A stretch of 64,000 bases of DNA from a virus, in the IMG/VR virus record IMGVR_UViG_3300027319_000002, positions 12,403 through 76,402 of that record; one strand, 5' to 3'. Position 1 is the stretch's first letter. Each line of letters starts with the position of its first letter. The notes under the pieces are model-generated. The model was given only the letters and a program-made list of their open reading frames with translations. It had not been told where the DNA came from and made no database searches. Made by a program: the position numbers and the translations under genes. Below are positions 1,092 to 32,933 of the stretch, piece after piece.

Positions 1092-1156
1092 CAGTATAAA
1101 ACGCTCAAACGGTACCATCGATTCAGGAAATTCCCCCGACTGGATCGGCGGTACCG

Positions 1157-1468: not shown

Positions 1469-1474
1469 GGCGAC

Positions 1475-1983: not shown

Positions 1984-2048
1984 TGTGATTCCCCGGCCCC
2001 GCTGCCGAGAAATTTGGCGGCGGGGCCACTCGGTTCACCGGAGACGTC

Positions 2049-2723: not shown

Positions 2724-2768
2724 CTAAGCGTTACCAGTCTTACCGCGCTGCTGCCTACGGTGCGGGGT

Positions 2769-3134: not shown

Positions 3135-3385
3135 TGGGATTCTTCCGGCGGCGTGATGATGGGCGGGAAAGTATCCGGCTCAAGGCGGCCAAGCGGCTTG
3201 ACCGGCTGCCCGCGGGCGAGGTGATGAACTTCGTCGACGCCTCCATGGCCGGGGCGTGGAAGGCCATGGAGGATTACGCTAAGAAGCCGGATTCGTTCCT
3301 TCTCGACGAGGCGGAACGCGGGCTGCAGCAGGCGCTCGGTGCCATCGACAGCCTGCGGAACCGGTTGACTTCCTCCCCCGTCTAA
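3134..3385 (+). CDS. hypothetical helical protein; last codons supplied by IS mini-element
   Basis: GTG at 3134 after GGAGGA RBS; C-terminal LTSSPV* lies inside the 3365-3412 element. Confidence 0.65.
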   Translation: MGFFRRRDDGRESIRLKAAKRLDRLPAGEVMNFVDASMAGAWKAMEDYAKKPDSFLLDEAERGLQQALGAIDSLRNRLTSSPV

Positions 3386-3412
3386 AGGCGGGGGTCTCCT
3401 CTGAGGGATCCG
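3365..3412 (-). mobile_element. IS200/IS605 single-hairpin mini-element (PATE-like)
   Basis: Begins TTGACTTCCTCCCC (same as right end of the 32678 element) and continues TAAAGGCGGGGGTCTCCTC (same as its left end); flanked by ATAA (TTAT on element strand). Confidence 0.75.
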
Positions 3413-3457: not shown

Positions 3458-3985
3458 TCAGGAGATCTTGACGGGCACCCAGGGCTGGCAGCCGCGAGTC
3501 TCGAACGCCTTATCCGTGCGGAGGATTTGGATCGTTGTGGGACCCTCGGCAATGCCGTTGTTGTTGATGGAGTTCAGCCCGCCACTCAGGTCTTTCAACC
3601 GTGCCCAGTAGCAGATTCCATCCTCATCAGGCCCCTTCGTCTTGTAGTAGCCGGGTTTGATCTCGACACCGACAACATAGGTGCCGGGGCCAATCTCGGT
3701 AACCTGTTCCGAATCAGCGGTCTTAGCCTCACTTTTCGGCTTCTCGCTCTGCGGAGCCTTCGGAGGGTCGGCGGTAAACGTTATCGTGGTGCGCTGCTGC
3801 TGCTCGGACGCTTCGTTAAGAGCATCACCAGCAGCGAAGAAAAGTCCGCCAGCCGTGCATGAGGCCACGTTGCTGATTATGAACGCTCCGATGATGGCGA
3901 GCTTCTTCCCAAGCCCCTTCTTGGGCTTCTCAGACCTGTGGCTTGGCGAAGGGTACCCCATTGGGGGCGACGCATGGTGCGCCAC
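3458..3985 (-). CDS. membrane-anchored/secreted actinobacterial-type surface protein
   Basis: AGGAGG RBS before GTG 3985; basic patch plus hydrophobic helix with Cys; C-terminal GTYVVGVEIKPGYY...CYWARL...FETRGCQPW domain seen in actinobacterial surface proteins. Confidence 0.7.
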   Translation of the reverse strand: MAHHASPPMGYPSPSHRSEKPKKGLGKKLAIIGAFIISNVASCTAGGLFFAAGDALNEASEQQQRTTITFTADPPKAPQSEKPKSEAKTADSEQVTEIGPGTYVVGVEIKPGYYKTKGPDEDGICYWARLKDLSGGLNSINNNGIAEGPTTIQILRTDKAFETRGCQPWVPVKIS

Positions 3986-4064
3986 ATCTGCCTCCTCTAC
4001 CCTTTGCTGGAACCAGCATAGCTCGTTCCAACAGTTGAAGAGAACTAGTTGTCCCAAACGTTAT

Positions 4065-4513: not shown

Positions 4514-5153
4514 GGGGTACGAGAAGGCGCTGGCCATCCGGCTTGAGCAGCTTGCACAGAAGCTGGAGAAGCTCGGCGTTACCGGCCACACGACCATTCC
4601 GGCCGGACGGTCCCCCGGCCCACTGGAGGATCAGCCAGAAAGGAATCGGGCCGTGAAGCTGGAAGACGTTCTGACGGAAATCGGTATCAAGTACAAGGAG
4701 GTCATCACGCGCAATCTGCGCGTGGAGAACCCGCTTCTCTGGATCATGTTCCGCGCCGCGGACGAGCTGTGGGTCCTTAAGGGCGTTGCCGCCGAGTACA
4801 CCACCGTCTGGCACGACCACGACGTTCTGAGCCCGGGAGACCCTACGTTCACCGTGACTGCCGAGTCATCGGACGGCCGCAAGGTGCAGACCTTCCAGCC
4901 GCACGAGCTCCCTGGCGACGTCAGGGCGCACATCAAGGACTGGCTGTGGGAGACCCGGCCTGTGAGGCTCGGGGACGCGCTGCGCGCGCCGATCAAGGAT
5001 AAGCTCGAGGCCGAGCGGGAAAAGGTTGCGCAGCTGGAGCGGGAGCGTGAGCGTCTCGTGACCACGATCGCGAGGCTGCGCGGCATGATCCACGCGCTTG
5101 AGGCGGAGAACGACAGCCTTAAGAGGCAGCTTCCCGCGGCCGAGGTTGCCTGA
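4500..5153 (+). CDS. hypothetical protein with C-terminal coiled coil
   Basis: Long coding-like ORF; start inferred from promoter position. Confidence 0.7.
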   Translation: MTSAEGYEKALAIRLEQLAQKLEKLGVTGHTTIPAGRSPGPLEDQPERNRAVKLEDVLTEIGIKYKEVITRNLRVENPLLWIMFRAADELWVLKGVAAEYTTVWHDHDVLSPGDPTFTVTAESSDGRKVQTFQPHELPGDVRAHIKDWLWETRPVRLGDALRAPIKDKLEAEREKVAQLERERERLVTTIARLRGMIHALEAENDSLKRQLPAAEVA

Positions 5154-5235
5154 CCTTCTTGTCCGGCTGGGCGGGCCCGGTCCGCCCGGCTCACTGGAAG
5201 GCCAGGTCAAAATGAGCATTCTGTATACTGTGCGC

Positions 5236-5424
5236 ATGAGTGATGATCAGCGGGAAGTCGGACTGACTGAGGCGCGGCACAAGATCGGTACCATGGTCGC
5301 CCAGGCCGAGCATGCCGGGCGAATCACCTTCCTCACACGCAACGGCAGGCATGTGGCGGCCGTGGTCCCCCTGTGGGTGGTGGAGCAGGCCTTGAACGCG
5401 AAACGGGCCCAGGAGGGCCGCTGA
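5236..5424 (+). CDS. Phd/YefM-family antitoxin-like protein
   Basis: VGLTEARHKIGTMVAQAEHAGRITFLTRNGRHVAAVVP matches the Phd/YefM fold consensus; TATACT at 5224 implies a leaderless ATG. Confidence 0.8.
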   Translation: MSDDQREVGLTEARHKIGTMVAQAEHAGRITFLTRNGRHVAAVVPLWVVEQALNAKRAQEGR

Positions 5425-5460
5425 GGAGCACCAGAAGAGCCCCAGAGAAAGGATCAGAGT

Positions 5461-5997
5461 ATGAGAGTCGTCATCCCCCAGACCCGGGTCTCGTTCCTTC
5501 TGGACGAGAATGAGCGGATCAGGTTCAAGGTCTCTCCTGAGGAGACGGGGCTGATCGTCGAGATCCTCGTCGACTATCACAACGAGGGCGACCACGGTCG
5601 GGTGAAGTACGCGTGGGAGGTGCGTGCCCTCGTTCACACCCCCAAGGGGGTCGACTACCGGCCGCTCCAGCCCGGTGACCTTCCTCGCCTGACTCGTGAC
5701 TTCATCAACGGCTTCGTCCACCGGGCCGCGCCTAACGACATCTACGACGGCGGCTTCGACGCCACGATCGATGAGTTCATCGACTGCCCCTGCTGCACGC
5801 GGTGCACGCAGTGCAACGGCCTCGGCGCGGTCGACGGCGAGAGCTGCAGCGCGTACGACGGCTATGGCCAGGTGCGGGGATGCCCCGAGGAGCCGCATGG
5901 GCAGAAGAAGCGCGGCTGCCCCACGTGTAACGGCACCGGCGATGACCCGGACCACGACGTGATCAGCTGTGCCCGACCTATGACGGCGACGGCCTGA
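5461..5997 (+). CDS. hypothetical protein with CxxCxGxG zinc-finger repeats
   Basis: CTQCNGLG and CPTCNGTG motifs; GAAAGGA RBS. Confidence 0.7.
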   Translation: MRVVIPQTRVSFLLDENERIRFKVSPEETGLIVEILVDYHNEGDHGRVKYAWEVRALVHTPKGVDYRPLQPGDLPRLTRDFINGFVHRAAPNDIYDGGFDATIDEFIDCPCCTRCTQCNGLGAVDGESCSAYDGYGQVRGCPEEPHGQKKRGCPTCNGTGDDPDHDVISCARPMTATA

Positions 5998-6027
5998 TCG
6001 TAAAGCCCGCCAGTAGCAGGGCATAGC

Positions 6028-6060
6028 AAAAGGGCCCCTTTCGAGGGGCCCTTCTTCTTT
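6028..6060. terminator. bidirectional intrinsic terminator
   Basis: AAAAGGGCCCCT-TTCG-AGGGGCCCTTCTTCTTT between convergent genes. Confidence 0.8.
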
Positions 6061-6065
6061 GCCGT

Positions 6066-7343
6066 CTAGACGGCTTCGTTGATGGTCACCTGGACGCCGA
6101 GGGCGGTCAGCTCTGCCAGCAGGTCCTGGATCCGGGATTCGCGGTCCTTGGTGGCCTGTGCCGACGTGCCGTAGGTGAGGTAGTCCTGGGCGACGGCGGC
6201 GGCGCGGGCCCAGGCGGGCGGGATGGACTTGATGTAGGTCTTGTAGGTGGTCTGCACCGACTTGTGGCCCAGCATCTTCGACACAGTGGCCACGTCCACC
6301 TTCTGGACCATGTAGGTGGCGAAGGCGTGCCGGAAATTGTGAGCGGTGATGGCCTTGTCTTCCAAACCGGCTCGGATAACCGCCTTCTTCAGCTCACGGT
6401 CGAAGCTGCTGTTGTTGACCGGCAGGTCCGGAATCACATCCGAGGGGAAGAGGACCCCATTTGGGGGAATGTTGTAGGTCTCGATGTGGCGCTCAAGCTC
6501 CTCTCGTAAGAGGTTGCTGAGCGGAACGTGACGTCCCTCTCCTTCCTCAAAGTACTTCAGCGGTCCCCAGGACCCACTGTGGGTCCACTGGCGGTAGATC
6601 CACAAGCTGTCTTCCAGGATGCAATCCCGGCTGAAGCCGAGCATCTCACCCTCGCGCAGCCCGGCCCCGGCCATCAGGTAGATGGCGACGCGGAAGAAGG
6701 GATTGATGCAGTCCGCGATCTTGTGAATCTCTTCCACGGAGGGGATGTAGCGATCCGCGGTCGGAACCTTGCGCGTCTTCTGGCGATCGGCCGGGTTGTC
6801 TGCCCGCCAGCCGTCTTCTACGGCCTGACGGAAGATCGGGCCCAGGACGAACTTGATGAGGGTCTTGACCGTACCCTCATAAACGCCCTTCTCGTACATC
6901 TCGGTCTTCAGCCGCTCGATGTCGATCTTGGTGATCTTGTTGATCGGCTTGTCACCGAATGCGGGGAAGGCGTACGTCCGGAGGGCCGACATGTACTGCC
7001 TCCGGCTGTTGGGCCGAAGCTCCTCCTTACCGTCTAGCCACTGATTGGCGTATTGCTCGAAGGTCGGCATGTCGCCCTCAGGTGACACCACAGGCATGCC
7101 CTGGCGCTTCAGGCGCTCCTGGTAGTTGGCAGCCAGGAACCTTTCCATGTCCTGCTTGGTCAGGAACACCTTGTGGCGCTGCTTGCCTGTGATGGCATCG
7201 TAGAAGCGGGCCTCGATCTTGCAGTCGCAGCGTCGCTGATCCTTGTGCGTGCAGCTGCTGACTCGGCGCCACGATCCGAGCCCGCGGCCGAGGTTGAACC
7301 ACTTTGAGGCCCCGTTCGACTTTGAGGACCTGCTCGCGCCCAT
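6066..7343 (-). CDS. int: tyrosine integrase
   Basis: Catalytic set GLREGE (R), HNFRH (HxxR), LGH and YKTY (Y); SAM-like N-domain. Confidence 0.92.
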   Translation of the reverse strand: MGASRSSKSNGASKWFNLGRGLGSWRRVSSCTHKDQRRCDCKIEARFYDAITGKQRHKVFLTKQDMERFLAANYQERLKRQGMPVVSPEGDMPTFEQYANQWLDGKEELRPNSRRQYMSALRTYAFPAFGDKPINKITKIDIERLKTEMYEKGVYEGTVKTLIKFVLGPIFRQAVEDGWRADNPADRQKTRKVPTADRYIPSVEEIHKIADCINPFFRVAIYLMAGAGLREGEMLGFSRDCILEDSLWIYRQWTHSGSWGPLKYFEEGEGRHVPLSNLLREELERHIETYNIPPNGVLFPSDVIPDLPVNNSSFDRELKKAVIRAGLEDKAITAHNFRHAFATYMVQKVDVATVSKMLGHKSVQTTYKTYIKSIPPAWARAAAVAQDYLTYGTSAQATKDRESRIQDLLAELTALGVQVTINEAV

Positions 7344-18032: not shown

Positions 18033-19042
18033 GCCGCCTGGATCGCAAGCAGGGCCGTTTCAGTCCTGTTTTCGAGTCGTATGAGATCGACGCCGCGCTG
18101 GGTGACCACCAAAGCGTCTATGGGCAGGAGATCAACTATTTCCGCTTCAGCCACGAGCTGACGCAGTCTCATGACATCTACGACGAGGGCGCCGGTGCGG
18201 GCCGGGTCTACTTCGCGCCGGTCAAAATCCCGGTGCTGCAGGTCATCCGCGAGGAGGGCCCGGCCACCCAGGAGCAGGGCGGGCTGTATTGGACCGACAC
18301 CATCCGGGTGATCGCCGCCTTCCGGCAGCTGATCAACGCCGGGCTGACCGAGCTGGACATCCAGCACGGCCGGTATCTGAAGGACCGGTTCGTCTACGAC
18401 CAGCGGCTCTTCCGCGTCACCGCGATCCGGATCATGGGGCAGGTCCGGTACAGGGACGTGATCGTCTCCATTGAGGGTGTCCAGCTGAAGAGAGAGGACA
18501 TCCTCAACGACCCGCAGTTTTCCGCCTGGTGGAGCGATGATGCCGCCTACCAGCCCACCCAGGGGGAGCCGTATGTCCCTGCCCCGAATTACGGGGGCGG
18601 GTCGGTTCCTCACTCGCATCCTGAATACGCGGCCGTCACCCATCAGCATGATTCGCTGTACGCCCCGGTGGATCATGTTCATCAGGCATCCGATGTGGGC
18701 GCCTACACCAAATCGGAAACCGATGCCGCGATCGCTAACACTCTGGCGGAGGCCAAGGCGTACACAAATACTGCCGCCGCCCCGAAGGGGCACACGCACA
18801 GTGAATATCTGACTTCTGACACCGTTGCGGCGGCCGTGAATGAGGCGCTACGGGAAGTGGTGATCACGTTCGCCATCCCATCCACGGTGTGGGAGGCGAG
18901 CTATAACATGCCACGCCTGCCCAAGATCACAACGACGACGTTGGACGGTGAGCGGATCGTCGGCGAGGAGTCCTATGTCCCGCCGAATGTGGTTCGCGTG
19001 TCATGGGCGGTCCCCGTTGCGGGTGTAATGTATCTGCATTAG
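18029..19042 (+). CDS. head closure / neck protein with C-terminal extension
   Basis: GTGA overlap; beta-barrel-like N-half (DRFVYDQRLFRV), His-rich repeats. Confidence 0.6.
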   Translation: MSRLDRKQGRFSPVFESYEIDAALGDHQSVYGQEINYFRFSHELTQSHDIYDEGAGAGRVYFAPVKIPVLQVIREEGPATQEQGGLYWTDTIRVIAAFRQLINAGLTELDIQHGRYLKDRFVYDQRLFRVTAIRIMGQVRYRDVIVSIEGVQLKREDILNDPQFSAWWSDDAAYQPTQGEPYVPAPNYGGGSVPHSHPEYAAVTHQHDSLYAPVDHVHQASDVGAYTKSETDAAIANTLAEAKAYTNTAAAPKGHTHSEYLTSDTVAAAVNEALREVVITFAIPSTVWEASYNMPRLPKITTTTLDGERIVGEESYVPPNVVRVSWAVPVAGVMYLH

Positions 19043-19051
19043 GAGGCTTAT

Positions 19052-20245
19052 GTGATCAACTATTACTCGCAAGTTAATCTCAACAAGATCCCGATCAAGG
19101 GGTTTGTTGCGGAAGGCGGTGCCGCGCCGCCGTCGAACCCGGCTGTCGGGCAGCAGTGGACGGACACCTCAACGAGCCCGCCCGTTGTCAAGTACTGGAA
19201 CGGAATCGCGTGGGTCCGGATGGACGGCGGTGACCTGCCGGACGGATCGGTCACCAACTCCAAGATCGTCAATGGGACGATCGCGTTGAACAAGCTCGCC
19301 ATCGACCCAACCGACCGGGCCAACCACCACGGCACCCAGCCACCATCCACGATTACCGGGCTGGACGCGTATATCCGAGCCTTCAGGTTAGACCAGTTCG
19401 CTTCCCCGGCGAATCCGCTTGACCTTGGTAATCAGCGGGCGACCAATGCGGCCCATCCGCAAGCTGACACCGACCTGGCGACGAAAAAGTACGTCGATGA
19501 CGCCCGTGCAGGGATCTCGGTCAAGGACCCGGTTCGAGTGGTGGTGACAGGCAACATCAACTTGTCGGCGCCGGGCGGGATGCTCGACGGCGTCACCATG
19601 AACATCGGGGACCGGTTCCTTGCTGCCGGGCAAACCACGGGCACGGAAAACGGCCTCTATGTGTTCCAGGGTCCCTCCACGCCCGCAACGCGGGCGCCGG
19701 ACGCTGATGCCGCCGGTGAAGTGATTGACGGCACCCTGGTTGCGGTCGCGGATGGTACGCATGCGGGGGAGCAGTGGATTCAAACCGCAACCCCCACGGG
19801 AGCACCGGGAACATGGGTGCAAACGTGGACCCGATTTTCCATGGGTGGCCAGACGTACAGTGCCGGTAATGGGCTGAATCTCGCCGGGACGGTTTTCTCC
19901 GTAAAACCGGGCAACTCGACGATCGTTGTTGACGAATCCGGCGTCAAGGTTGGCCTCGTTGGCATCGCTCAGGGTGGCACGGGGGCGACTACGGCGAGCG
20001 GAGCGCGAGCCAACCTCGGTGCTACCGGCCTATACACCGCGCCGCTCCCGGCGCTTAGCCCGGGGGTATGGACCAATATCGTCCACAATCTAGGCAATCC
20101 TAACCCGCTGGAGCCGTCGTTTAGGGATATCACCACGGGCGAATTCGTTTCAATGGACTCAAGGGTCATCGACGCTAACACGGTGGCGGTTCGGGCCGAC
20201 GTCGCGGTTCAGGCGGGCGCGATTCAGATTACGGTGGTCGGCTGA
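19052..20245 (+). CDS. virion fibre-like protein
   Basis: Gly/Thr-rich, DLATKKYVD and YSAGNGLNL fibre motifs; AGGAGG RBS. Confidence 0.7.
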   Translation: MINYYSQVNLNKIPIKGFVAEGGAAPPSNPAVGQQWTDTSTSPPVVKYWNGIAWVRMDGGDLPDGSVTNSKIVNGTIALNKLAIDPTDRANHHGTQPPSTITGLDAYIRAFRLDQFASPANPLDLGNQRATNAAHPQADTDLATKKYVDDARAGISVKDPVRVVVTGNINLSAPGGMLDGVTMNIGDRFLAAGQTTGTENGLYVFQGPSTPATRAPDADAAGEVIDGTLVAVADGTHAGEQWIQTATPTGAPGTWVQTWTRFSMGGQTYSAGNGLNLAGTVFSVKPGNSTIVVDESGVKVGLVGIAQGGTGATTASGARANLGATGLYTAPLPALSPGVWTNIVHNLGNPNPLEPSFRDITTGEFVSMDSRVIDANTVAVRADVAVQAGAIQITVVG

Positions 20246-20640
20246 TGCGCTCGTATAGCCGCACGCTGAAACCAGACGGGTCAATTAAGGTACGCGACGT
20301 TTACCCGTTTTTTGTCGCGGGGAGCGTTACCGCGCAGCCGGGCGCACACCGCCTATATAACGTGTATGGCGAGACGCTGAAAATTCTGGCGGTTCACGCG
20401 AGCGTTGGCACGGCCCCACAGGGCTCGCCAATAATCATTGATGTCAATATCAATGGCGCGACGATTTTCACCAACCAGGGGAACCGGCCGACGATCCCCG
20501 CTGGTGGTACCAGCAGCGGGAGGGTTGCGAGCATGAATGTGACTGATTGGCCGGACGGTGCGTATATCACCGTGGACGTCGACCAGGTGGGTTCGTCCGT
20601 GCCCGGCTCGGCGCTGACTGTCCTGGTGGTGGTGGGCTGA
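20245..20640 (+). CDS. virion beta-sandwich protein
   Basis: TGATG overlap; ITVDVDQVGS..PGS.LTV motif. Confidence 0.65.
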   Translation: MRSYSRTLKPDGSIKVRDVYPFFVAGSVTAQPGAHRLYNVYGETLKILAVHASVGTAPQGSPIIIDVNINGATIFTNQGNRPTIPAGGTSSGRVASMNVTDWPDGAYITVDVDQVGSSVPGSALTVLVVVG

Positions 20641-20641
20641 C

Positions 20642-21157
20642 GTGACACTACCGGGGAATCTCCTAACGGAGAACCAAGAGGGGCTCGAGGCCGACACAAC
20701 CGGCTGGGAAACAGGGTCGGGAGAATTCGCGCGCGATACAACGCGTGCTCGCTCTGGTATCGCGTCCCTGCGCATCACGAGCGTTAGCAGTGGCGATACC
20801 TGGTGCTACAGCACCGGGTATGCTGCCCCGATATCTCCGGGTGCGGTGTACACCGTTTACACCTGGGTGTATACGACGCACAGCGGTATCACTGCTCGGC
20901 TCGGATTCGACTGGCTGGATTCCGGCACCGCGTATATCTCAAGCGCTCAATCACCCGGTGTGGTGCTCACACCTAACCGGTGGGAGCAGGTCATCGCAAC
21001 GTTTACGGCGCCCGCTGGCGCCGCTATGGCGGCCCTTTACCTGCCCTGGTTCATTGCCACAGCAGCCGGGCAAACATGCTGGTTCGATGACATGTATTTC
21101 GGGATTCCCCCCGTTGCCGCTCCGCTTATTGGGTGGGGAATCCCCGTCTACTCGTAG
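20642..21157 (+). CDS. carbohydrate-binding-module (galactose-binding fold) protein
   Basis: NLLTEN.EGLE..TTGW...ARSG..SL, WFDD motif. Confidence 0.65.
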   Translation: MTLPGNLLTENQEGLEADTTGWETGSGEFARDTTRARSGIASLRITSVSSGDTWCYSTGYAAPISPGAVYTVYTWVYTTHSGITARLGFDWLDSGTAYISSAQSPGVVLTPNRWEQVIATFTAPAGAAMAALYLPWFIATAAGQTCWFDDMYFGIPPVAAPLIGWGIPVYS

Positions 21158-21173
21158 ATGCTAAGGGAGGATT

Positions 21174-21425
21174 ATGGTTCACGCTGGGGATTCTGGTGCT
21201 GTCTCGGACGCCCTCAGGAGGGCGTGGGCGACTCTCGGTCAGGGCGCTTTCGTGGCCGCCCTCGTGGCCGTTGGTGGCGTGCTGTCCACGCTTGGGGATG
21301 GCCCTATTGATTGGGGTGACGTGGTGCAGGCTTGTGCTCAGGCCGCGGGTACTGCTGTGGTGACGTACGTCTACCGCAAGGTTCGCCCGGCTGAGCAGGT
21401 TTCCTACAACGACGAAGCCCTGTAA
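21174..21425 (+). CDS. holin-like membrane protein
   Basis: RRAWATLGQ followed by two TM segments, similar to r1t-type holins; GGGAGG RBS. Confidence 0.6.
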   Translation: MVHAGDSGAVSDALRRAWATLGQGAFVAALVAVGGVLSTLGDGPIDWGDVVQACAQAAGTAVVTYVYRKVRPAEQVSYNDEAL

Positions 21426-21443
21426 GCCTCGCTGAGGCTCTAA

Positions 21444-21484
21444 GACGAACCCCCCGACGTATCCAGCGTCGGGGGGTTTTCGTC
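21444..21484. terminator. intrinsic terminator between convergent genes
   Basis: GACGAACCCCCCGACG-N7-CGTCGGGGGGTTTTCGTC. Confidence 0.75.
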
Positions 21485-21498
21485 GTTTCTGGGGGTTA

Positions 21499-21660
21499 TC
21501 AGGGGTGCCCTAGGTGGTCGAACAGGCCGCGCTTGACCCCCTTGACGAATGTTGCCCAATTCTCGGGGGTTGTCTCGATGCGCCTAGACGGCTGATCCCA
21601 ATCGATGATGATCTTGCCGTTGTCTGTCGTCTTCGGCTTGTATACGCCCGCCTTGATCAT
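21499..21660 (-). CDS. DUF397-like small protein
   Basis: ETTPENWATFVKGVKRG matches the DUF397 C-terminal W..F..GVK.G pattern. Confidence 0.55.
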   Translation of the reverse strand: MIKAGVYKPKTTDNGKIIIDWDQPSRRIETTPENWATFVKGVKRGLFDHLGHP

Positions 21661-21669
21661 CTCTAGGTA

Positions 21670-21723
21670 GGCGCGCCACTGGCGGTGGTGAAGCGGTACG
21701 TCGAGCAGCAGAAGGGACGCTGA
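21670..21723 (+). pseudogene. tnpA: C-terminal remnant of Y1 transposase
   Basis: GAPLAVVKRYVEQQKGR* is the IS200 TnpA C-terminal helix carrying the catalytic Tyr; an in-frame TAG lies just upstream. Confidence 0.8.
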
Positions 21724-22917
21724 ATGCTGACCGGACGCCGCTACCTGCTGGCCTTCACCCCCGAGCAGGAGGAGTTCGCCGAGAAGATCGGTGACGCCTG
21801 CCGGGTTGTGTGGAACACCGCGCTGGAGCAGCGCCGACAGTATCGGCGGCGCGGCGCGTTCATCGGTTACGTAGAGCAGGCGCGGCAGATGGCCGAGGCC
21901 AAGAAGGACTTCCCGTGGCTGGCCGAGGCCCCGTCGCACACGCTTCAGCAAACGCTCCGCGACCTTGAGCGGGCATGCAAGACGCACGGCACGTTCAAGG
22001 TCCGCTGGCGCTCCAAGCGGAAAAACGCGCCGACGTTCCGCTTCCCCGATCCCAAGCAGATCACCGTGGAGCGAATCTCCCGTCGCTGGGGCCGGGTCAA
22101 GCTGCCCAAGCTGGGCTGGACCCGCTTCCGGTGGACACGCCCGCTCGGCGGGCAACTTCGCAATGCCACCGTGCTCAAGGATGGTGGGCGCTGGTACATC
22201 TCCTTCTGCGTCGAAGACGGGCTGATGGAGTCCGCACCGAATGGCAAACCCCCGGTGGGGGTGGATCGTGGTGTCACTGTCGCAGTCGCCACCTCGTCCG
22301 GGTGGATGCGTGACCGCGAGTTCGTCACCCCAGGGGAGGCGGTACGGCTCAAGCGTCTTCAGCAGCAGCTCGCCCGGCAACGGAAGGGCTCCAACCGGCG
22401 CGCGGCTACCCGGGCGAAGCTGACCAAGCTGAACGCCCGCATCCGCGCCCGGCGTACCGACTTCCTGGCGTGGACCGCCAACCGCCTCACCCGTGACCAC
22501 GGACTGGTTGTTGTGGAGGACCTCAACATCCGAAACATGACCGCCTCTGCCAAAGGCACGCTTGCCGAGCCGGGGAGGAACGTCGCCGCCAAGGCTGGGC
22601 TGAACCGGGCGATCCTGGCCAAAGGATGGGGCGGACTACTGACCGCCTTGGAGCACAAGGCTCGTTACAACGGTTCCCGTATTCTGCGGGTGCCACCTGC
22701 GTTTACATCGCAGACCTGCCATGCCTGCGGGCACTGCGCGCCGGACAACCGTGAGAGCCAAGCGGAGTTCCGGTGCCGCGCCTGCGGCCACCAGGACAAT
22801 GCCGACGTGAACGCCGCGAAGAACATCCTCGCCGCCGGGCTGGCGGTGACAGGGCGTGGAGACCTCGCCGTTGGGCGGTCTGTGAAGCGCCAACCACCCA
22901 AGGTAGAGGCAGCGTGA
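21724..22917 (+). CDS. tnpB: RNA-guided nuclease TnpB
   Basis: N-terminal HTH (FTPEQEE...CRVVWN), RuvC GVDRG / VVEDL / NADVNAA all intact, CxxC-CxxC zinc finger. Confidence 0.95.
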   Translation: MLTGRRYLLAFTPEQEEFAEKIGDACRVVWNTALEQRRQYRRRGAFIGYVEQARQMAEAKKDFPWLAEAPSHTLQQTLRDLERACKTHGTFKVRWRSKRKNAPTFRFPDPKQITVERISRRWGRVKLPKLGWTRFRWTRPLGGQLRNATVLKDGGRWYISFCVEDGLMESAPNGKPPVGVDRGVTVAVATSSGWMRDREFVTPGEAVRLKRLQQQLARQRKGSNRRAATRAKLTKLNARIRARRTDFLAWTANRLTRDHGLVVVEDLNIRNMTASAKGTLAEPGRNVAAKAGLNRAILAKGWGGLLTALEHKARYNGSRILRVPPAFTSQTCHACGHCAPDNRESQAEFRCRACGHQDNADVNAAKNILAAGLAVTGRGDLAVGRSVKRQPPKVEAA

Positions 22918-22985
22918 ACGCGCCTCAGCCACGGGAATCCCCCGCCTTCAGGCGTGGGGAGGAAGTCAACAAGGTAAATACCGCA
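22825..22985 (+). ncRNA. TnpB omegaRNA/reRNA (approximate), guide starting about 22970
   Basis: Established architecture: scaffold overlaps the tnpB 3' end and right end, and the guide comes from flanking DNA. Confidence 0.6.
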
Positions 22986-23053
22986 CTTTACCAGTTTTCC
23001 GGCACGTTTCTCTACCCTGAATGGTGGATGGTCGTCATTCAGGGAGAGAGGAC

Positions 23054-23683
23054 GTGCCGGTTATCTTCGATGAGGACGGCGCCATCAAGCAAAAGCTGTC
23101 CGGCATCACGATTGATGTCGGTGGTGGCACCGTTGAAGTACCGGTTCGTTTTCACAACCCTGACCCTGAGATCGGGGATATGACCTACCCGATCATCATT
23201 ATCGATCGGGTGGACATCTCCCCAGCTTATGACCGGGCGCAAAGCGGGTGGGGGCACTACCCGTACCAGGTGGAGGGAAAGCCTGCACCGGAGGAGGGCG
23301 CCACCTGGGATTACTACGCGGAGTTCCCCCTTCCGTACAACGTGGACTACCAGGTCTCAACCCTGTGCCGGACCCGTAGCCAGCAATCGCAGCTGCACGG
23401 AATTCTGTCGCGGTGGAACCGGATCCCACCGCGGTATGGGTTCATCAAGATTCCGAGACTTAATGGGATCACCGCCCTGGAACTCATCGGCGGGCCGGAT
23501 CACGACACGATGCTCGACACGAACGGCAAACGGCTTTTCGCGATGCACTACCTGGTGCGCGTGCAGACCTTCTTCACGCCGTTCGAGATTCAGCGTTACG
23601 AGCACGTTCGGAGCATTCACGGCACGGTGGTCGACTTCAAGACGGGAAAGCAGCGCCTCACCGAATTTGACGATCGCTCGTAA
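23054..23683 (+). CDS. tail completion/terminator protein
   Basis: YPIIIID, PYNVDYQVST motifs; precedes sheath; GAGAGGA RBS. Confidence 0.7.
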   Translation: MPVIFDEDGAIKQKLSGITIDVGGGTVEVPVRFHNPDPEIGDMTYPIIIIDRVDISPAYDRAQSGWGHYPYQVEGKPAPEEGATWDYYAEFPLPYNVDYQVSTLCRTRSQQSQLHGILSRWNRIPPRYGFIKIPRLNGITALELIGGPDHDTMLDTNGKRLFAMHYLVRVQTFFTPFEIQRYEHVRSIHGTVVDFKTGKQRLTEFDDRS

Positions 23684-23698
23684 GACCTAGGAGATTCT

Positions 23699-25249
23699 GT
23701 GGCGACTTACCTGACCCCCGGCGTCTACGTTGAAGAGAATCTGTCGGCGGGGGCGGCCGGTGATGGCAGTGCATCCCGCGCGGTAGGCGCTTTCGTCGGC
23801 ATCGCGCCAACCGGACCGAGCGTGCCCACCCTGGTCCGGACGTGGTCCCAGTACGTCACCCTCTTCGGGGGCTTCGACGGCCCGCGAAATTATCTGCCGT
23901 ACGCTGTTTACCAATTCTTTGCAAACGGTGGTTCGCAGTGCTACATCGTCCGCGCCACCCGGGCGGACGCGACCTACGCCACCGCTGCACTGACGGACTC
24001 CACCCCGGCCGGTGACGGCGGCCCCAAGACCGCCCTTCAGGTCACCGCGCTTGCGGCCGGTTCCTACTCCAACAACCTGAGCGTGGACATCCGGCCGACC
24101 GGCGCCGAGGGCGGCCGGTTCGACTTGCTCGTCCTCTTCAAGGGTCAGATCGTAGAGCGGTTTGCGGACCTCTCCAGCAACCCGGACGACTCCCGCTACG
24201 TGGTCAGCGTCGTCAACTCCCCGGCCGATGGCTCGCTGTACATCAAGCTGACCAACCCCAAGATCGCCGATGGGTACGTCTACGACCTCGAGGACGACGT
24301 CATCCCAGCTCAGACGGTCAACCTGACCGGCGGCAGCGATGGTGTGCAGCCGTACGACTATGTCTCGGCGGCCAAGAAGCTGGATGACATCCCCAACACC
24401 AATTTCGACCTCAACCTGCCTGCAGTCAACGACACGGCCGTCCTCAACCCGATCATCGACTGGGCCGAAAAGCGGGGCAATGTCTTCGTCATCGTCGACG
24501 GTCCCCGGGCCGCCGAGGGTGCCACCTCCGACCAGGTCATGGCCGGGTACATCAGCATGGTCGGCTCCCAGAGCGGTGCCCTGCTGGCCTCCAGCCACGC
24601 CGCCATCTACGGCCCGTGGCTGATGGTGGTGGACCCCGCCAGCAACCGGTGGGGCGCCCGGCGCCTGCTGCCGCCCGGCGGCGCGGTCATGGGGCAGATG
24701 GCCAAGACGGACATGGTCCGTAATGTGGCCAAGGCCCCCGCGGGTGTCGAGAACGCCATCGTCAACGTGCTGTCCACGGAGGCTAAGTTCACCGAAGAGC
24801 AGCTGGATGAGCTGGCCTACAACCACATCAACGTCATCCGGCTGATCCCCGGGTACGGTCACTGCATTTGGGGCGCCCGCACGCTCAAGCGGTCTCTGCC
24901 CGACCTTTACGTCCCGGTCCGGCGGACGCTGATCATGCTCCGCAAGACCCTTGCGGATCAGACCCGGTGGGCGGTCTTCGAGCCGAACGCGTCGGACCTT
25001 TGGCAGAAGGTGCGGCTCGTCTTGTCCACCTACCTGTCCAAGCTCCGCCAGGCCGGAATTCTCGCCGGTCAGACCGATAAGGAAGCCTTCTTCGTCAATT
25101 GCGGCCCTGATCAGAACCCGCAGTCGGAAATCAACGCTGGCCGACTCAATATCGAGGTCGGCGTCCGGCTGCTCTATCCCGCTGAATTCGTGATCATCCG
25201 CCTTTCCCACTACGACGGAGGCGTCGAGACCGGCGAAGTGGCCCTGTAA
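23699..25249 (+). CDS. tail sheath protein
   Basis: YLTPGVYVEE, KAPAG, WGARTL, YVPVRR, FEPN and PAEFVIIR sheath motifs. Confidence 0.95.
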   Translation: MATYLTPGVYVEENLSAGAAGDGSASRAVGAFVGIAPTGPSVPTLVRTWSQYVTLFGGFDGPRNYLPYAVYQFFANGGSQCYIVRATRADATYATAALTDSTPAGDGGPKTALQVTALAAGSYSNNLSVDIRPTGAEGGRFDLLVLFKGQIVERFADLSSNPDDSRYVVSVVNSPADGSLYIKLTNPKIADGYVYDLEDDVIPAQTVNLTGGSDGVQPYDYVSAAKKLDDIPNTNFDLNLPAVNDTAVLNPIIDWAEKRGNVFVIVDGPRAAEGATSDQVMAGYISMVGSQSGALLASSHAAIYGPWLMVVDPASNRWGARRLLPPGGAVMGQMAKTDMVRNVAKAPAGVENAIVNVLSTEAKFTEEQLDELAYNHINVIRLIPGYGHCIWGARTLKRSLPDLYVPVRRTLIMLRKTLADQTRWAVFEPNASDLWQKVRLVLSTYLSKLRQAGILAGQTDKEAFFVNCGPDQNPQSEINAGRLNIEVGVRLLYPAEFVIIRLSHYDGGVETGEVAL

Positions 25250-25271: not shown

Positions 25272-25823
25272 ATGGCTACTACCGTTGAGGACCGCGCGAA
25301 GCAGGACCCGCTTCGCTCATTTAGATTCAAGGTCGTCTTTGGCGACACCAAATATGGATTTGGCACCGGAAAGGGCGCCATCGGCTTTATGTCCGTCACC
25401 GGGCTGAGCATGACCACCGAAGTCATCCCCTACCGGGAAGGCGGTATGAACACCACCACCCGGAAGATGCCCGGCCAGTCGGACTTCTCCCCGGTCTCCT
25501 TCAGCCGCGGTCTTACCGTCGGTAACCGGGCGATGTACAACTGGATGCTGGAGCTTTTCGACGTTCTGCAGGGCAACACCAGCGCCACCGGGACCGATTT
25601 CCGGATGAACGTCGACATCTATCTCCTGGCACACCCGTGGCCGGGCCCGGAGCCAGTGCAGCTCGCCGGATGGCGTCTGTTTAACGCCTGGCCGACCTCG
25701 CTGGCGTTTTCGGACCTGGACGCCGGTGCGAACTCGATCGCGATTTCGCAGATGACGCTGGCTCATGAAGGCTGGCAGTTCATTCTGGCGGACGACGTCA
25801 GCGGGAACGGCATCAACTTCTAA
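25272..25823 (+). CDS. tail tube protein (T4 gp19-like)
   Basis: DPLRSFRFKV, YREGG, KMPG...SFSRG, NAWPTSL, LAHEG. Confidence 0.92.
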   Translation: MATTVEDRAKQDPLRSFRFKVVFGDTKYGFGTGKGAIGFMSVTGLSMTTEVIPYREGGMNTTTRKMPGQSDFSPVSFSRGLTVGNRAMYNWMLELFDVLQGNTSATGTDFRMNVDIYLLAHPWPGPEPVQLAGWRLFNAWPTSLAFSDLDAGANSIAISQMTLAHEGWQFILADDVSGNGINF

Positions 25824-26748: not shown

Positions 26749-26899
26749 CCACGCTGACCTGTACGACGTCTATGAGGCGTTGATCTTGGCCTACCCCGGT
26801 TGGACGTTGCAGGACGTGCGCGCCATGACCCCACGGGAGCGGCACTTTTTTGCCAGCCGGGCGGCCGAGCGCGCTGAGCGAAAGGCCTTGCGGCAGTGA
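26738..26899 (+). CDS. second tail chaperone frame (probably reached by frameshift)
   Basis: GWTLQDVRAMTPRER motif, no start codon with an RBS, stop overlaps the tape measure GTG. Confidence 0.6.
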   Translation, partial: FAVNHADLYDVYEALILAYPGWTLQDVRAMTPRERHFFASRAAERAERKALRQ

Positions 26900-29800
26900 A
26901 CAACACGCCACCCAACCCGCCGCCTGCCCAAACGCCGAACCCCACTCCGGCAACCCCGGCAGGTGTTCAGGCGTCCCCGCCGGGTGGTCAGGCACCTCCG
27001 GCCGGGCCGATGGCCAGGCTGCTCAACACCCACACCTTTACCCAGGCTGTGGGCCAGTTCGCGGCCACGGTCAACCGAATGTCAGGCGTCTACACGACGC
27101 TTAACCAGCGGCTGAACCAGCTGGTGGCCGCGCTCAACCGGCTGACCCAGGCGGGGGTGGGGGGCGCTGGTGCCCGGGTTGGCGCCGGGACCCCGGCGAC
27201 CCCAGGCGGTACCAACGGCGCTGCACCCGGGCACCAGATCACCATCAACGGGCAACCGATCGGACAGGCGGCCGGACAGGCCGCCGGTGGTGCAGCCCGC
27301 GGCGGCGGTGCGGGTGGTGGGCACGCTGGCGCCGGGGGCGGTGGCCCAACCCCAGCGAAATGGTCGTTTGAGAACGACATCTCCCCGATCGCGCCGGGCA
27401 AGTTCCAAAGGGCATGGGCCGCATGGACGGGCACCACCCCGCCCGCGTGGGGAACCAAATACACCAACTGGGATACCGGGTGGGCGGCAGCTCGGCAGTT
27501 CGCCAACGCCTTGGAGCGGATTGCCGAGCGGCAGGAACCTCTGCAGCACCAGGTCGGGCTCTTTAAGAGCTACATGTCCGTCTACCGGCCTCCGGGCATG
27601 TCGGAGACCGATTTCCGGGATCTGCTGCAGCAGACCACCATCGGATCGTCATCCGAATCACGGAGCCTGACCCAAGGCTGGCAGATCCTTCAGCGCAGCC
27701 AGGCCCGCGGGTATGGGCTGTCGGCGCTGGACAACATGCAGGCCACTATGGCCAAGGCCACGCTGGCCGGTGGCCCGTTCAACCCAACCGCTCAGTCCAT
27801 CGAGACCTTCGCCGCGGCGCTCGGCAACAACGCCCCTGGGGTGGGCGCGGCCAAGGTCATGGGCATGGTCGGGTCGATGATGTCCCCGACTGCCCGGTTG
27901 CGGTCGATGATGATGTACGCCGGGGACCCGGTCGGCCGCGATGGGAAGATCGTGGACCCGGCCGAATGGGCCAAGCGCATCCTCAAGGCCGTCTACCCCA
28001 AGCGGGGGCACGCATCCTCGGCGGAGGTTTTCGAGATAGACTTCGCCGAGTACGGTCCCGGTCGCCTGTACCTTAAGCAGGTCCTCGGCCGTGATGATGT
28101 GGAGCCGTTCGTCCGGATCCTTCGGCAGGTCCACAACGCCCTGTTGCAGGGCAAATCGACCGAGGATTTCGGCAAGCTCAACCTTGAGGCGTCCAAGGTC
28201 GGCACCGACTACGACAAGGCGCGGCAGCAGCTCAAGGAGAAGTACGGCAACGACCTGCTGATGGACACCTCGCTGATCAAGCAGAGGTCTGAGCTTGCCC
28301 GCGAGGCACAGCAGGTCACCAGCAACGAGGCGTGGCTGGATGCGGCCGAGACGATGACCAAGGCCACTGACCAGTTCAGCGCCGCGGTCTCCAGCTTCGT
28401 CAGCGCCCCGATCATCAAGGACGTTGTCGCCTGGGCCAAGAACCTGCTCCTGACGCTCAAACCGGCCCTGGACAACTCCGGCACGATCCTCGGTATCAAT
28501 GGTGCCGGACTGCTGAGTAGCCAGGGCCCTGAAGGGGGGTCGACCGCCTCCGCCGCGCCGCGGCTTCCCGCCACCGGTGCGGCCGGGCTGGCCGCCGCGG
28601 ATGCCGCCGCAGAACGCTCGTCTGCGCAGAAGAACAAGAAGGAGGACGAAAAGAGCCTCGGCGAGCAGATCGCTGAAGAGGCCCGGCGGTGGACCCGGAT
28701 GAGGGTCCGCTACACCATGTCCCCTAAGCGGATGTCGCCGGGCTATGCCGACTGCTCGAGTTTTGTCACCCGGGTTTACGCCAAGTTCGGATACGTCGTC
28801 GGGCCAACGACGGTCGAGCTTAACCGGCAGGGTGTTGAAGTTCCCCTCAGCGACTTGCAACCGGGTGACGTCCTGCTGTCGGGGTCACGCACCCAAGCGG
28901 GCGCCGCCGGGCACACCGGCATCTACGTCGGCAACGGCCGGTATGTGGATGCCAACTCCCGCCGTGGCGACCATGCGGTCCAAGAGCGCCCGATGAGCGG
29001 CCGTAGGTGGGACCGGGCCCGGAGAATCATCGGCGCTAAGAACGTCCGCCGTTCCAAGAAGGCCGCCCGGCTTGAGGAAAAGTACGGCGATTTCGCACCA
29101 GGTGTCGATTTCGCAAGCAACAACTGGGGTGGTGCCGATTTCGGTGGCGGCCAGTCCACCACCAGTGGGGGTAGCACCAGCAGCCCGGTCGTCATCGGCG
29201 GTGGCCTCGGTCTTGGCGCTCCTGGCACCAACTTCAGCGTCAGCGAGCTAGAGGCGCTTACCGCGCTTTTTTCTGGCGGCGGGGTTTCCGCCAGTGGGGG
29301 GATCTTTGGCCGCGGTACGGAGAGCGGTACCGACGGGGGTCAGGCCGACAACCCTGACCAGGAGAACCCCGGAGATGCGGCCACCGCCAAGACCCGCTCC
29401 ATCAATGGCACCACCGAGGATGAGGCGGTCTTCGGTCAAGATGACGGCAAAGAGAACCGAAATCCTCCCTATGGGCGGCGGAAGGGCGAGAAGTCGGACC
29501 CGGACAGCGTCAAGATCCCCAAGACCGGGTACTCCGGTCCGCGCGGAGAGCGCAACAAGCAAATCGCCAAGAGGTTGGCCGCCTCCTACGGGTGGGACAA
29601 AGGCCGGGACTGGCAGGCGCTGCTGGCGCTGTGGCAGAAGGAGTCCAGCTGGAACCACCTGGCCGTCAACCGCTCCTCCGGCGCCTACGGCATCCCTCAG
29701 GCCCTGCCCGCCAGCAAGATGGCCTCCGAGGGCAAGGACTGGCGCACCAACCCAGCGACCCAGATCAAGTGGGGCCTGAAGTACATCAAGCAGCGCTACT

Positions 29801-30183
29801 ACGACCCGGAGGCAGCCTGGGCGCACAGCGTGGACTTCGGCTGGTACGACAAGGGTGCCTGGGAGATTCCGCGGGATCACCTGGCCGTAGTCCACAAGGG
29901 CGAGATGATCATTCCCGCCCGGCAGGCGCAGACCATCCGCGAAGCCCTGGTCAGCGAAACCTTAAAGGAGGGCGGTAATCTCACCGGCGCCGCCGCGGTC
30001 GGCAAGACCGGCGGGTGCACCGTCAACCTGACCATCGAGTCCGGCGCGATCGTTGTTAACGCCAGTGGCGGCCGGATCGGCGAACAGACGGGACGCGAGA
30101 TCGTCGACGGCATTGTCCGTGAACTTAAGCGTCGGGACCTGTATGAGGCGATCGCGAAGGGAGGATACGATGCCCTATCCTGA
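26896..30183 (+). CDS. tape measure protein with NlpC/P60 and lytic transglycosylase domains
   Basis: DCSSFV...PGDVLL...GHTGIYVG (NlpC/P60); KESSWN...SSGAYGIPQALP (SLT). Confidence 0.88.
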   Translation: MNNTPPNPPPAQTPNPTPATPAGVQASPPGGQAPPAGPMARLLNTHTFTQAVGQFAATVNRMSGVYTTLNQRLNQLVAALNRLTQAGVGGAGARVGAGTPATPGGTNGAAPGHQITINGQPIGQAAGQAAGGAARGGGAGGGHAGAGGGGPTPAKWSFENDISPIAPGKFQRAWAAWTGTTPPAWGTKYTNWDTGWAAARQFANALERIAERQEPLQHQVGLFKSYMSVYRPPGMSETDFRDLLQQTTIGSSSESRSLTQGWQILQRSQARGYGLSALDNMQATMAKATLAGGPFNPTAQSIETFAAALGNNAPGVGAAKVMGMVGSMMSPTARLRSMMMYAGDPVGRDGKIVDPAEWAKRILKAVYPKRGHASSAEVFEIDFAEYGPGRLYLKQVLGRDDVEPFVRILRQVHNALLQGKSTEDFGKLNLEASKVGTDYDKARQQLKEKYGNDLLMDTSLIKQRSELAREAQQVTSNEAWLDAAETMTKATDQFSAAVSSFVSAPIIKDVVAWAKNLLLTLKPALDNSGTILGINGAGLLSSQGPEGGSTASAAPRLPATGAAGLAAADAAAERSSAQKNKKEDEKSLGEQIAEEARRWTRMRVRYTMSPKRMSPGYADCSSFVTRVYAKFGYVVGPTTVELNRQGVEVPLSDLQPGDVLLSGSRTQAGAAGHTGIYVGNGRYVDANSRRGDHAVQERPMSGRRWDRARRIIGAKNVRRSKKAARLEEKYGDFAPGVDFASNNWGGADFGGGQSTTSGGSTSSPVVIGGGLGLGAPGTNFSVSELEALTALFSGGGVSASGGIFGRGTESGTDGGQADNPDQENPGDAATAKTRSINGTTEDEAVFGQDDGKENRNPPYGRRKGEKSDPDSVKIPKTGYSGPRGERNKQIAKRLAASYGWDKGRDWQALLALWQKESSWNHLAVNRSSGAYGIPQALPASKMASEGKDWRTNPATQIKWGLKYIKQRYYDPEAAWAHSVDFGWYDKGAWEIPRDHLAVVHKGEMIIPARQAQTIREALVSETLKEGGNLTGAAAVGKTGGCTVNLTIESGAIVVNASGGRIGEQTGREIVDGIVRELKRRDLYEAIAKGGYDALS

Positions 30184-31537: not shown

Positions 31538-32681
31538 GACGAGGCTTGTCTACGAGCTGTACATCAACGAAACGAAGGTCAACCCCCAGCCGTTCGATGT
31601 GGTGATCGAGCCGGGGATCGGCAAGATCAGTGTGGTCACGGCCAAGCTGTTCTTCTCCGGGCCTGACCAGATCCGCCGCCGGATGGAGTACCCGAAGCAC
31701 GGCACCCCGGTCCGCCTGGTGTGGGGGCGCCGCCCGAAGATCCGCACCTGGTACGGGTACATCCACCACACCCAGCCCACCACCGGTGAGCCGCAGGCCC
31801 TGTATGGGGGCCTGGTCGCCACCTACGTCATGGTCGGCACCGGGCAAGGGCTGATTATGGAGCGGACGAGGGATTGGCGGCAGATCACCGATTCTGGTAT
31901 CGCCAAGCAGATCGCCCAGGAGTATGGGCTTTCCTTCGTCGGCCACCGCACCAGGAAGGTGCACGATTACCTCTACCAGCCGGGCATCTCCGACTTCTCC
32001 TGGCTGAAGCAGCGGGCTGAGAAGTCCTCCCGCGTGCTCCACATCGAAAACGGAACCTTATACTTCGTCGATCCCGCCTCGCTGGCGATGGCCACCCGGT
32101 CCAATCCACTGACCGTCCGGATGGACCGGGTCAAGGAGCACGATGACTGGGTGCTGGACGTGCGCCCGCTGCACGGGTCGCTGGTGCCGATTTCCGGCAA
32201 GCAGGCAAACCGGCAGCTCACTGGCATTGACTACGCCAGTAACCAGCTGCTGAAAGCCAAATCCCCGGCGAGCGAGCCCGCCCCGGAGTGGGTCGCCAGA
32301 AACCGTGAGATCGCCTCGGTCACCGACCTGTACATTGACGCCGAGGCGCTGGCGATTGCCAACGAGCAGTGGCTGAAGGCCGATGTGGACATGATCGGCG
32401 AGCCGGATGCGATCCCCGGGAACCTGCTCGACCTTCAAGGGGAAGCGGTCAAACCGGAGCTGACCGGAGTGTGGATGGTCACCGAAGCCCGGCACCACCT
32501 GCACTTGAAGGATCCCAGCGCAGTCGGTGCCGCGGCCACCTACTACGCCACCGCGACCGTCTCCCGTAACAGCTCCGACGCGCTGATCTTGCGGGACAGG
32601 AGCCTGCCGCGGGTGGATGATGCCTGCACCCTGATGGGCGGCCGGTGGGTGGCCGCCAATCGGAGGGACGTGCTGCTTTGA
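31530..32681 (+). CDS. baseplate hub protein (gpD/VgrG-like); stop codon lies in the inserted element
   Basis: DSGIAKQIAQEYGL, Q.GISDFSWL..RA, GVWMVTEARH. Confidence 0.8.
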   Translation: MSKTRLVYELYINETKVNPQPFDVVIEPGIGKISVVTAKLFFSGPDQIRRRMEYPKHGTPVRLVWGRRPKIRTWYGYIHHTQPTTGEPQALYGGLVATYVMVGTGQGLIMERTRDWRQITDSGIAKQIAQEYGLSFVGHRTRKVHDYLYQPGISDFSWLKQRAEKSSRVLHIENGTLYFVDPASLAMATRSNPLTVRMDRVKEHDDWVLDVRPLHGSLVPISGKQANRQLTGIDYASNQLLKAKSPASEPAPEWVARNREIASVTDLYIDAEALAIANEQWLKADVDMIGEPDAIPGNLLDLQGEAVKPELTGVWMVTEARHHLHLKDPSAVGAAATYYATATVSRNSSDALILRDRSLPRVDDACTLMGGRWVAANRRDVLL

Positions 32682-32857
32682 CTTCCTCCCCTCCCTGAAG
32701 GGAGGGGATTCCAACCCTCACGGGTTGGGTTTCCTGCTTCACAGGCGACTGCCGTCGCACACCCGAAGGTGTGCGACCGGCCTTACGTGGCCTCCACAGG
32801 CATCACATCCCGCCAGCCCGGCGGTAGGCCCGCCAGGCGATAACAAGCCTGGCGGGC
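32660..32857 (-). ncRNA. orphan omegaRNA-like guide RNA (approximate)
   Basis: Extended -10 TGcTATCTT at 32872-32864; several perfect hairpins; shares CCGCCGGGCTGGCGG and CTGTGAAGC with the tnpB 3' end. Confidence 0.6.
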
Positions 32858-32933
32858 GATATAAAGATAGCACAGCTTCGAAGGGATCCGATTCCTCCCC
32901 CGCCTAAAGGCGGGGGTCTCCTCGGAGGTACCG
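32678..32933 (-). mobile_element. 256-bp non-autonomous IS200/IS605 element (left end, promoter, omegaRNA-like scaffold, right end)
   Basis: Ends GAAGTCAA like the tnpB element; retains tnpB 3' sequence; removal restores CTG CTA TGA with an ATGA stop/start overlap. Confidence 0.88.

Follow-up and report, generated by a model that had tools for sequence, protein, structure and literature searches.

The RNA-guided nuclease TnpB preserves its own transposon by cutting the donor site that the transposon has vacated. A TnpA-independent copying into homologous sites that never held the transposon has been demonstrated for plasmids and proposed for phages. Here, we analyzed a tnpB gene in a 64,000-bp stretch of phage DNA (in the following, the window), which covers bases 12403–76402 of the 92,984-bp IMG/VR record IMGVR_UViG_3300027319_000002 (~95% complete). 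The gene lies within what is, judged by homology, a 1,300-bp 5'-truncated IS200/IS605 element of the IS605 group (ISDra2-like) at window positions 21670–22969. We tentatively read this element as a TnpB-omegaRNA module that may still be active and capable of homing, a reading to which we assign a likelihood slightly below even.

The element shares its basic organization with ISDra2 of Deinococcus radiodurans. In full-length relatives of the window copy a Y1 tnpA gene is followed by tnpB, the transposon-associated target motif (TAM) reads (T)TGAT, and the omegaRNA is composed of the tnpB 3' end and the right end, with the guide derived from the flank. The D-E-D RuvC triad and the CxxC...CxxC motif of ISDra2 TnpB align residue for residue with the window protein. 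The alignment extends over most of the length but at low identity, and the window TnpB has a 15-aa insertion after RuvC-II, which is also present in PDB entry 9j09. In contrast to ISDra2, the window copy has no left end and its tnpA is reduced to 17 codons. IS608 of Helicobacter pylori is reported to have imperfect subterminal hairpins with an extra-helical T, a TCAA located 10 nt past the right hairpin, a GAAT 5' of the right hairpin, a left cleavage site 19–20 nt before the hairpin, and TTAC as its target. The ends of the window family share the hairpin, TCAA, GAAT and left-cleavage spacing that are ascribed to IS608; the target is TGAT here and not TTAC, and the left end is missing from the window copy. 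Elements carrying tnpB only (IS1341 group) and internally deleted, non-autonomous IS200/IS605 elements likewise have no functional transposase but keep TnpB and the omegaRNA. These elements retain both ends and can be mobilized in trans, whereas the window copy cannot, because its left-end hairpin is lost.

TldR proteins are phage-encoded, nuclease-dead TnpB derivatives with an inactivated RuvC domain that act as RNA-guided repressors (PMC10705468). The window gene resembles them in being a phage-carried TnpB homologue without a transposase. A TldR identity was ruled out, since the three RuvC acidic residues D181, E265 and D361 are all present. Nuclease genes have further been described at boundaries of exchange between phages (PMC10448857), and a TnpA-independent, TnpB-dependent spread of IS605 among plasmids has been reported, together with the proposal of a 'non-restorative homing' into co-infecting phages (PMC13565253). 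As for the free-standing homing endonuclease genes of T4 and ICP1 phages, known for intronless homing and for islands of such genes (PMC10448857, PMC13565253), the nuclease gene is found here at the boundary of a swapped module of near-identical phages, and the predicted cut site is not the same in the self and non-self alleles. The difference lies in recognition, which is predicted to be RNA-guided (TAM plus 16 nt) and not protein-based. Phage-borne TnpB elements and elements with tnpB alone are already known kinds, as are filled and empty alleles in phages. The points of interest at the present locus are the complete immobilization, the exact coincidence with a module boundary, and a single nucleotide polymorphism (SNP) at a seed position in the empty allele.

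The element has lost its left end and its transposase

Relatives of the element were gathered from viral contigs and from a set of genomes in which each species was represented once. For all of them, homology covers positions 21670–22969 of the window and ends there. Full relatives (e.g. in contigs L005 and L004) carry an upstream Y1 tnpA gene and a left end with an imperfect hairpin, which is located 19–20 nt after the TAM/cleavage site, and the target motif lies directly before this left end. The full element in L005 is 97.6% identical to the window copy at the DNA level, and its tnpA gene (3602..4000 of the contig) yields a Pfam Y1_Tnp match with E = 4.9e-45. Only the last 17 codons and the TGA stop of this IS200-like transposase gene were identified in the window by tblastn and alignments (21670..21723, + strand). 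The remnant encodes GAPLAVVKRYVEQQKGR, which corresponds to the C-terminal end of the Y1 transposase (132 aa) encoded by full copies, and matches residues 116–132 of the L005 TnpA at 94% identity (tblastn). Y1_Tnp was not detected anywhere in the whole phage record (93 kb). A motif search that finds the left-end hairpin in 29 relatives found none upstream of the window tnpB. TnpA-mediated peel-and-paste cannot move the element because both the left-end hairpin and the transposase are gone. An earlier note on this DNA, made from the letters alone, had counted 18 remaining tnpA codons starting 9 nt after a TCAT, had seen no left-end hairpin, and had concluded that the element can no longer transpose. 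All of this agrees with our comparison, in which the 18 codons are 17 plus the stop and homology starts at 21670.

The right end is preserved, as the note had also stated. It comprises a subterminal imperfect hairpin, CCCCCGCC-TTCA-GGCG(T)GGGG, at 22939..22959 (+ strand; motif and copy alignment), followed by 10 nt ending ...GGAAGTCAA, and this arrangement is conserved in ~40 copies. The last four bases of the element, TCAA (22966..22969, + strand), represent the right-end cleavage site, where homology with all copies stops. Beyond TCAA the sequence varies from copy to copy, as guides should.

The TnpB nuclease and its predicted guide RNA are preserved

The tnpB gene (21724..22917, + strand) is intact and encodes 397 aa, as assigned by Pfam, phmmer and a structure-sequence alignment. 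The protein contains the Pfam domains HTH_OrfB_IS605, OrfB_IS605 and Cas12f1-like_TNB and matches the solved ISDra2 TnpB structures (8bf8/8exa) with a phmmer E-value of 4.9e-33. Residues D181, E265 and D361 align to the catalytic D191, E278 and D361 of ISDra2 TnpB, and C332, C335, C351 and C354 to its four zinc-finger cysteines, in line with the previous report of a complete RuvC triad and zinc finger. The window TnpB and that of the full L005 element share 98% identity. Considering the 300 columns with a conservation of at least 90% among 31 relatives, the window protein deviates at two positions (T133 and E348).

Changes in tnpB were polarized against the copies in L003 and L005, with L015 serving as outgroup. 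The window branch has acquired 9 synonymous and 0 derived non-synonymous changes, and the pairwise ratio of non-synonymous to synonymous substitution rates (dN/dS) to the nearest copies is 0.09–0.13. At the level of sequence comparison this indicates that purifying selection acted on the window tnpB branch. All nine window-specific substitutions are third-position changes from G/C to A/T, which is consistent with a drift to the lower G+C content of the phage (~63%) under protein-level constraint. A 578-bp contig from an Algoriphagus aestuarii assembly (L051) is 99.3% identical to window positions 22004–22581 within tnpB; the most likely explanation is a contaminant or stray fragment in this Bacteroidota assembly.

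For the omegaRNA, covariation was analyzed in an alignment of the last 240 nt of the element over 38 copies. The alignment supports three helices within the tnpB 3' end plus right-end hairpin (26 pairs, 95.6% of cells paired), and 13 of the 26 pairs show compensatory changes. This covariation was reached by none of 500 shuffles, and slid controls were 36–56% paired. The predicted omegaRNA scaffold extends over 22831..22969 (+ strand), with helices at 22831–22847 and 22853–22891 in the tnpB 3' end, followed by the right-end hairpin. Positions 22800–22969 are identical to the full element in L005. A comparison with Rfam revealed no family above threshold over the element. The HgcC family scored 16 bits against a cut-off of 50 (E = 0.78, 22859–22982), and this sub-threshold match owes its score to the right-end hairpin and the GGAGGAAGUCA tail, which suggests that the archaeal HgcC family shares an IS200/IS605 right-end/omegaRNA 3' motif.

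ISDra2 has a 116-nt scaffold and a 16-nt guide (PMC10097598), and the guide length of 16 nt was adopted here by analogy. The predicted guide and its cognate target, CAAGGTAAATACCGCA, correspond to the flank directly 3' of the right end (22970..22985, + strand). In ISDra2, TnpB does not tolerate double mismatches in guide positions 1–12 (PMC10097598).

A sister phage contains an empty allele flanked by the TAM

The bases before the left end were compared in the 29 copies that retain one. They read TGAT, often TTGAT, in 24 copies; the other five read GGAT, CGAT (twice), CGAC and TGAG. Judged from these copies, the TAM of the transposon family is TGAT, with insertion 3' of it. The motif TCAT, which had been put forward as the TAM in the earlier note, occurs in none of the 29 and has to be abandoned.

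A closely related phage without the element is represented by two viral records and one metagenome contig (L095, L096 and L102; in the following, the sister phage). Window and sister phage are ~99% identical from 8287 to ~18579, show 55–80% identity over 18580–20064, are unrelated over 20065–22969, and are 99.7% identical from 22970 to at least 37936. The sister junction reads ...ACGTTCTGAT|CAAAGTAAATACCGCAC and ends with ...TTCTGAT before the junction. Homology restarts at 22970, the first base past the right end, with TGAT directly before it. Window and sister phage differ in a swapped 4.4-kb module of virion genes (18580..22969), which on its right side ends, to the base, where the element ends.

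In the sister phage, TGAT is followed by CAAAGTAAATACCGCA, which matches 15 of the 16 predicted guide bases. The mismatch is found at 22973, corresponding to guide position 4 (G in the window, A in the sister phage); the first 1,088 bp past the right end of the element contain no other difference. In total, 13 differences were counted in 4,711 bp (0.28%), so that ~0.04 SNPs would be expected in 16 nt. The genome of the window has no TAM-flanked copy of the target, and its own site is preceded by TCAA. Filled and empty alleles are found at one site in closely related genomes, the empty one with the recognition site. The previously predicted empty allele of related phages was indeed found, with 15/16 of the guide, but it is flanked by TGAT and not by TCAT. 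Cleavage of this sister allele by the window TnpB is plausible from the match of TAM and guide.

The left joint looks illegitimate

The family TAM motif TTGAT is present in the left flank (21653..21657, + strand), 12 nt before the first transposon-derived DNA. The left junction reads ...GCCCGCCTTGAT CATCTCTAGGTA | GGCGCGCC..., with transposon DNA from 21670 onwards. The 12-nt junction stretch CATCTCTAGGTA (21658..21669, + strand) has no homology to other copies and does not match the left-end consensus CGAAATKCKTRG either; it supplies the ATG (as CAT) of a 53-aa open reading frame (ORF) on the minus strand. With respect to an insertion next to the TAM, TGAT is located exactly at the junction in the empty site of the sister phage, and TTGAT of the window is 12 nt off the transposon DNA. 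We considered the 12 nt as the start of a left end that had been retained in a simple internal deletion. This is not supported, because the junction is unlike any of the 29 left ends despite a tnpB 97.6% identical to the full copy. From its sequence, the left joint looks illegitimate.

Joining the flanks after TTGAT (21657) results in a perfect 12-bp palindrome, CCTTGATCAAGG. A join after TCAT results in CCTTGAT-C-ATCAAGG, exactly as the earlier note had it, where the palindrome was taken to support the left boundary. This second part does not hold, since the join after TTGAT is equally good; because both joins give palindromes, the palindrome cannot choose the boundary. The anatomy proposed there, with an element starting at 21661 after TCAT as its TAM and an empty allele ...CCTTGATCAT|CAAGG..., is in our view very improbable. 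It does account for a tnpA remnant that starts 9 nt after TCAT and for joined flanks that form a palindrome with 7-bp arms. It is contradicted by the left-end-bearing copies, by the actual empty allele, which has TGAT at the junction, and by the 9 nt after TCAT, which are common to no other copy. Two further readings of the left junction rest on similarities that were too weak after multiple looks. One would make the stretch a relic of the target (TTGATCA-----AGGTA against TGAT plus target, p = 0.06), the other, over 20 nt, a relic of the sequence that immediately precedes the TAM in the sister phage (p = 0.005 in a shuffling test).

A possible TnpA-independent homing module

In the reading that we tentatively favor, a full element would have inserted after TGAT in front of CAARGTAAATACC... 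in the phage lineage, and its left part would then have been lost by illegitimate recombination or deletion. The TnpB-omegaRNA pair would have kept its function and, provided that it is transcribed, would cut CAAGGTAAATACCGCA next to TGAT in sister phages that co-infect the cell; its own site, where TCAA stands in place of TGAT, would thereby be spared. When the cut is repaired on the template of the genome that has the element, the recipient would acquire the element and perhaps the neighboring module. The outcome would be a TnpA-independent 'non-restorative' homing or marker exclusion, which is plausible given the two alleles. A more specific form of this reading appears unlikely to us. Here, the immobilized TnpB-omegaRNA would be a free-standing RNA-guided homing endonuclease that is copied along with the 4.4-kb virion cassette as a homing endonuclease gene (HEG) island, and the A that the sister phage has in place of G at guide position 4 would have arisen as an escape or immunity mutation.

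The same nuclease might instead act as a pure interference weapon that kills or excludes co-infecting competitors with the TGAT-flanked target but does not copy itself, or might be re-guided by another guide, such as that of a mini-element at 32658–32933. The empty, TAM-flanked allele of the sister phage would offer a substrate for such interference, and the same phage has both a guide-RNA-only mini-element, of which the last 36 nt are 89% identical to the studied right end, and a second TnpB-like gene beside a CRISPR-like array. Intron endonucleases mediate interference between co-infecting phages, according to work cited in PMC13565253. However, recombinational repair, i.e. homing, and not genome loss is expected from a cut, because the flanks are 99.7% identical, and we consider interference or re-guiding to be quite improbable.

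The main competitor of an active homing module is an inert recent remnant, i.e. an IS605-type element or host-derived piece that was illegitimately truncated, is unexpressed and is too young to have decayed. Its position at a module boundary would arise because the same recombination event made both. We grant this explanation a substantial chance, clearly under one half, and a number of observations weigh in its favor and against an active module. The left-end promoter region is gone from the window copy. A pattern scan detected no sigma-70-like promoter between the terminator-like hairpin at 21450–21489 and tnpB; this hairpin and a convergent 53-aa gene are what precedes tnpB. About 10 of 40 chromosomal relatives have a partial tnpA or none, some of them keeping the left end, so that truncation with tnpB kept is a common decay state. 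The window copy is only 1–2.4% diverged from its relatives, and an open tnpB frame is therefore expected even without selection; the signal of purifying selection may be older than the truncation. E348 lies in the zinc ribbon between the CxxC pairs, where 30 of 31 relatives have V, and this V348E change is also present in the copy of contig L003. The latter contig contains a second, differently truncated copy that also abuts foreign hairpin DNA, and the 12-nt left junction of the window resembles an illegitimate joint.

Further points against the active module concern its potential targets. In the one empty allele that is known, the mismatch to the guide falls on seed position 4. A pattern search of viral contigs retrieved no phage in which the left flank of the window copy borders an empty site (...GCCTTGAT|CAAGG...). 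The pattern of TGAT plus target was found in metagenome contigs only in the sister phage, apart from six chance matches, and the 171-aa protein encoded next to the element had no match in metagenome contigs and one distant match in viral contigs.

Two observations speak against an inert remnant. The 9 synonymous to 0 derived non-synonymous changes are unlikely under neutrality (~0.3^9), and every catalytic and RNA feature is kept. The locus represents a natural test pair for the active module and the inert remnant, consisting of a non-transposable element and a 99.7% identical sister phage with a TAM-flanked target that has one seed mismatch, and with a module boundary that meets the element's right end exactly. 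An active nuclease would make this a case of phage mosaicism shaped by RNA-guided homing or marker exclusion; with an inactive one, the locus would simply be a young transposon remnant.

Genomic context and the swapped module

The element is surrounded by virion genes, in a phage that has a contractile tail and whose host is a high-G+C actinomycete. A head-decoration/fibre-like protein is encoded at 19052–20245, the tail sheath at 23699–25249, the tail tube at 25272–25823 and a tape-measure-like protein at 26896–30183. These neighbors bear out the placement of the locus among virion genes. A megablast search with 20200–24500 against GenBank phages returned only an 80-bp tnpB match, in mycobacteriophage Llij. 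In 301 genomes from the family to which the closest chromosomal relative belongs, matches were confined to the transposon and never included the phage flanks.

Within the module, the sister phage has a 603-aa GDSL-hydrolase-like gene where the window has the transposon, the 53-aa ORF and genes for proteins of 131, 171 (CBM_4_9) and 83 aa. The cassette (18580–22969) corresponds to ~450–3949 of L096 and includes, on the window side, a 343-aa protein with a diverged C-terminus, and further a 397-aa fibre/decoration-like protein that is 61% identical between window and sister phage. The CBM_4_9 domain of the 171-aa protein is carbohydrate-binding. By its gene content, the swapped cassette looks like a host-surface-interaction module.

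The terminator-like hairpin (21450..21489, + strand) is located 3' of the upstream 83-aa gene and consists of a 10-bp G+C stem followed by TTTT. It was seen directly in the sequence and was not listed by the pattern scan. The convergent 53-aa ORF (P0002; 21499..21660, - strand) is situated outside the transposon. Its G+C content at codon positions 1, 2 and 3 is 0.50, 0.41 and 0.80, respectively. Because the third-position value is coding-like, the ORF is probably a real gene and not a part of the transposon. A homologue search found none, and no contig on record encodes this ORF. The label DUF397-like, which had been attached to it, could not be upheld, since the match to PF04149 is sub-threshold (E = 0.19, 12 bits against a cut-off of 24).

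Other IS200/IS605-type and TnpB loci in the phage group

A second intact TnpB-like gene of 500 aa is encoded in the genome of the window but outside the window itself (G000:C1, ~4844–6667; L002 1077–2874, minus strand). The protein contains the motifs GVDIGV, IEDLD and DRDINAARNI, two CxxC pairs and Pfam TnpB domains, and its best PDB match is 9j09 (E = 4.5e-85). Directly after the gene, five ~28-nt repeats, GTCCGCCCCACGCGTGCGGGGAAGGGTC, are separated by unique ~33-nt spacers, which had no match among the sequences collected in this analysis. By sequence, this TnpB/Cas12-like gene of the phage adjoins a CRISPR-like mini-array.

Two IS200/IS605-type mini-elements were observed in the window. 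The one at 32658–32933 (- strand) is protein-less and has an omegaRNA-like 3' part. The other, at 3365–3412, is a collapsed hairpin element of 48 bp. Over 3.1 kb, phage DNA of L003 matches window positions 273–3394 at 99% identity; the two then diverge inside an IS200/IS605-type hairpin. Since this homology ends inside the hairpin mini-element 3365–3412, a second mosaic boundary in the phage group coincides with an IS200/IS605-type end. Compared with the window at 3394, the mini-element is fuller in L003 (3087–3946), which also has small unrelated ORFs and a truncated tnpA-tnpB. The latter copy begins ~830 bp past the divergence, is likewise 5'-truncated but keeps tnpA residues 79–132, and is the closest relative of the window copy outside a recombinant patch.

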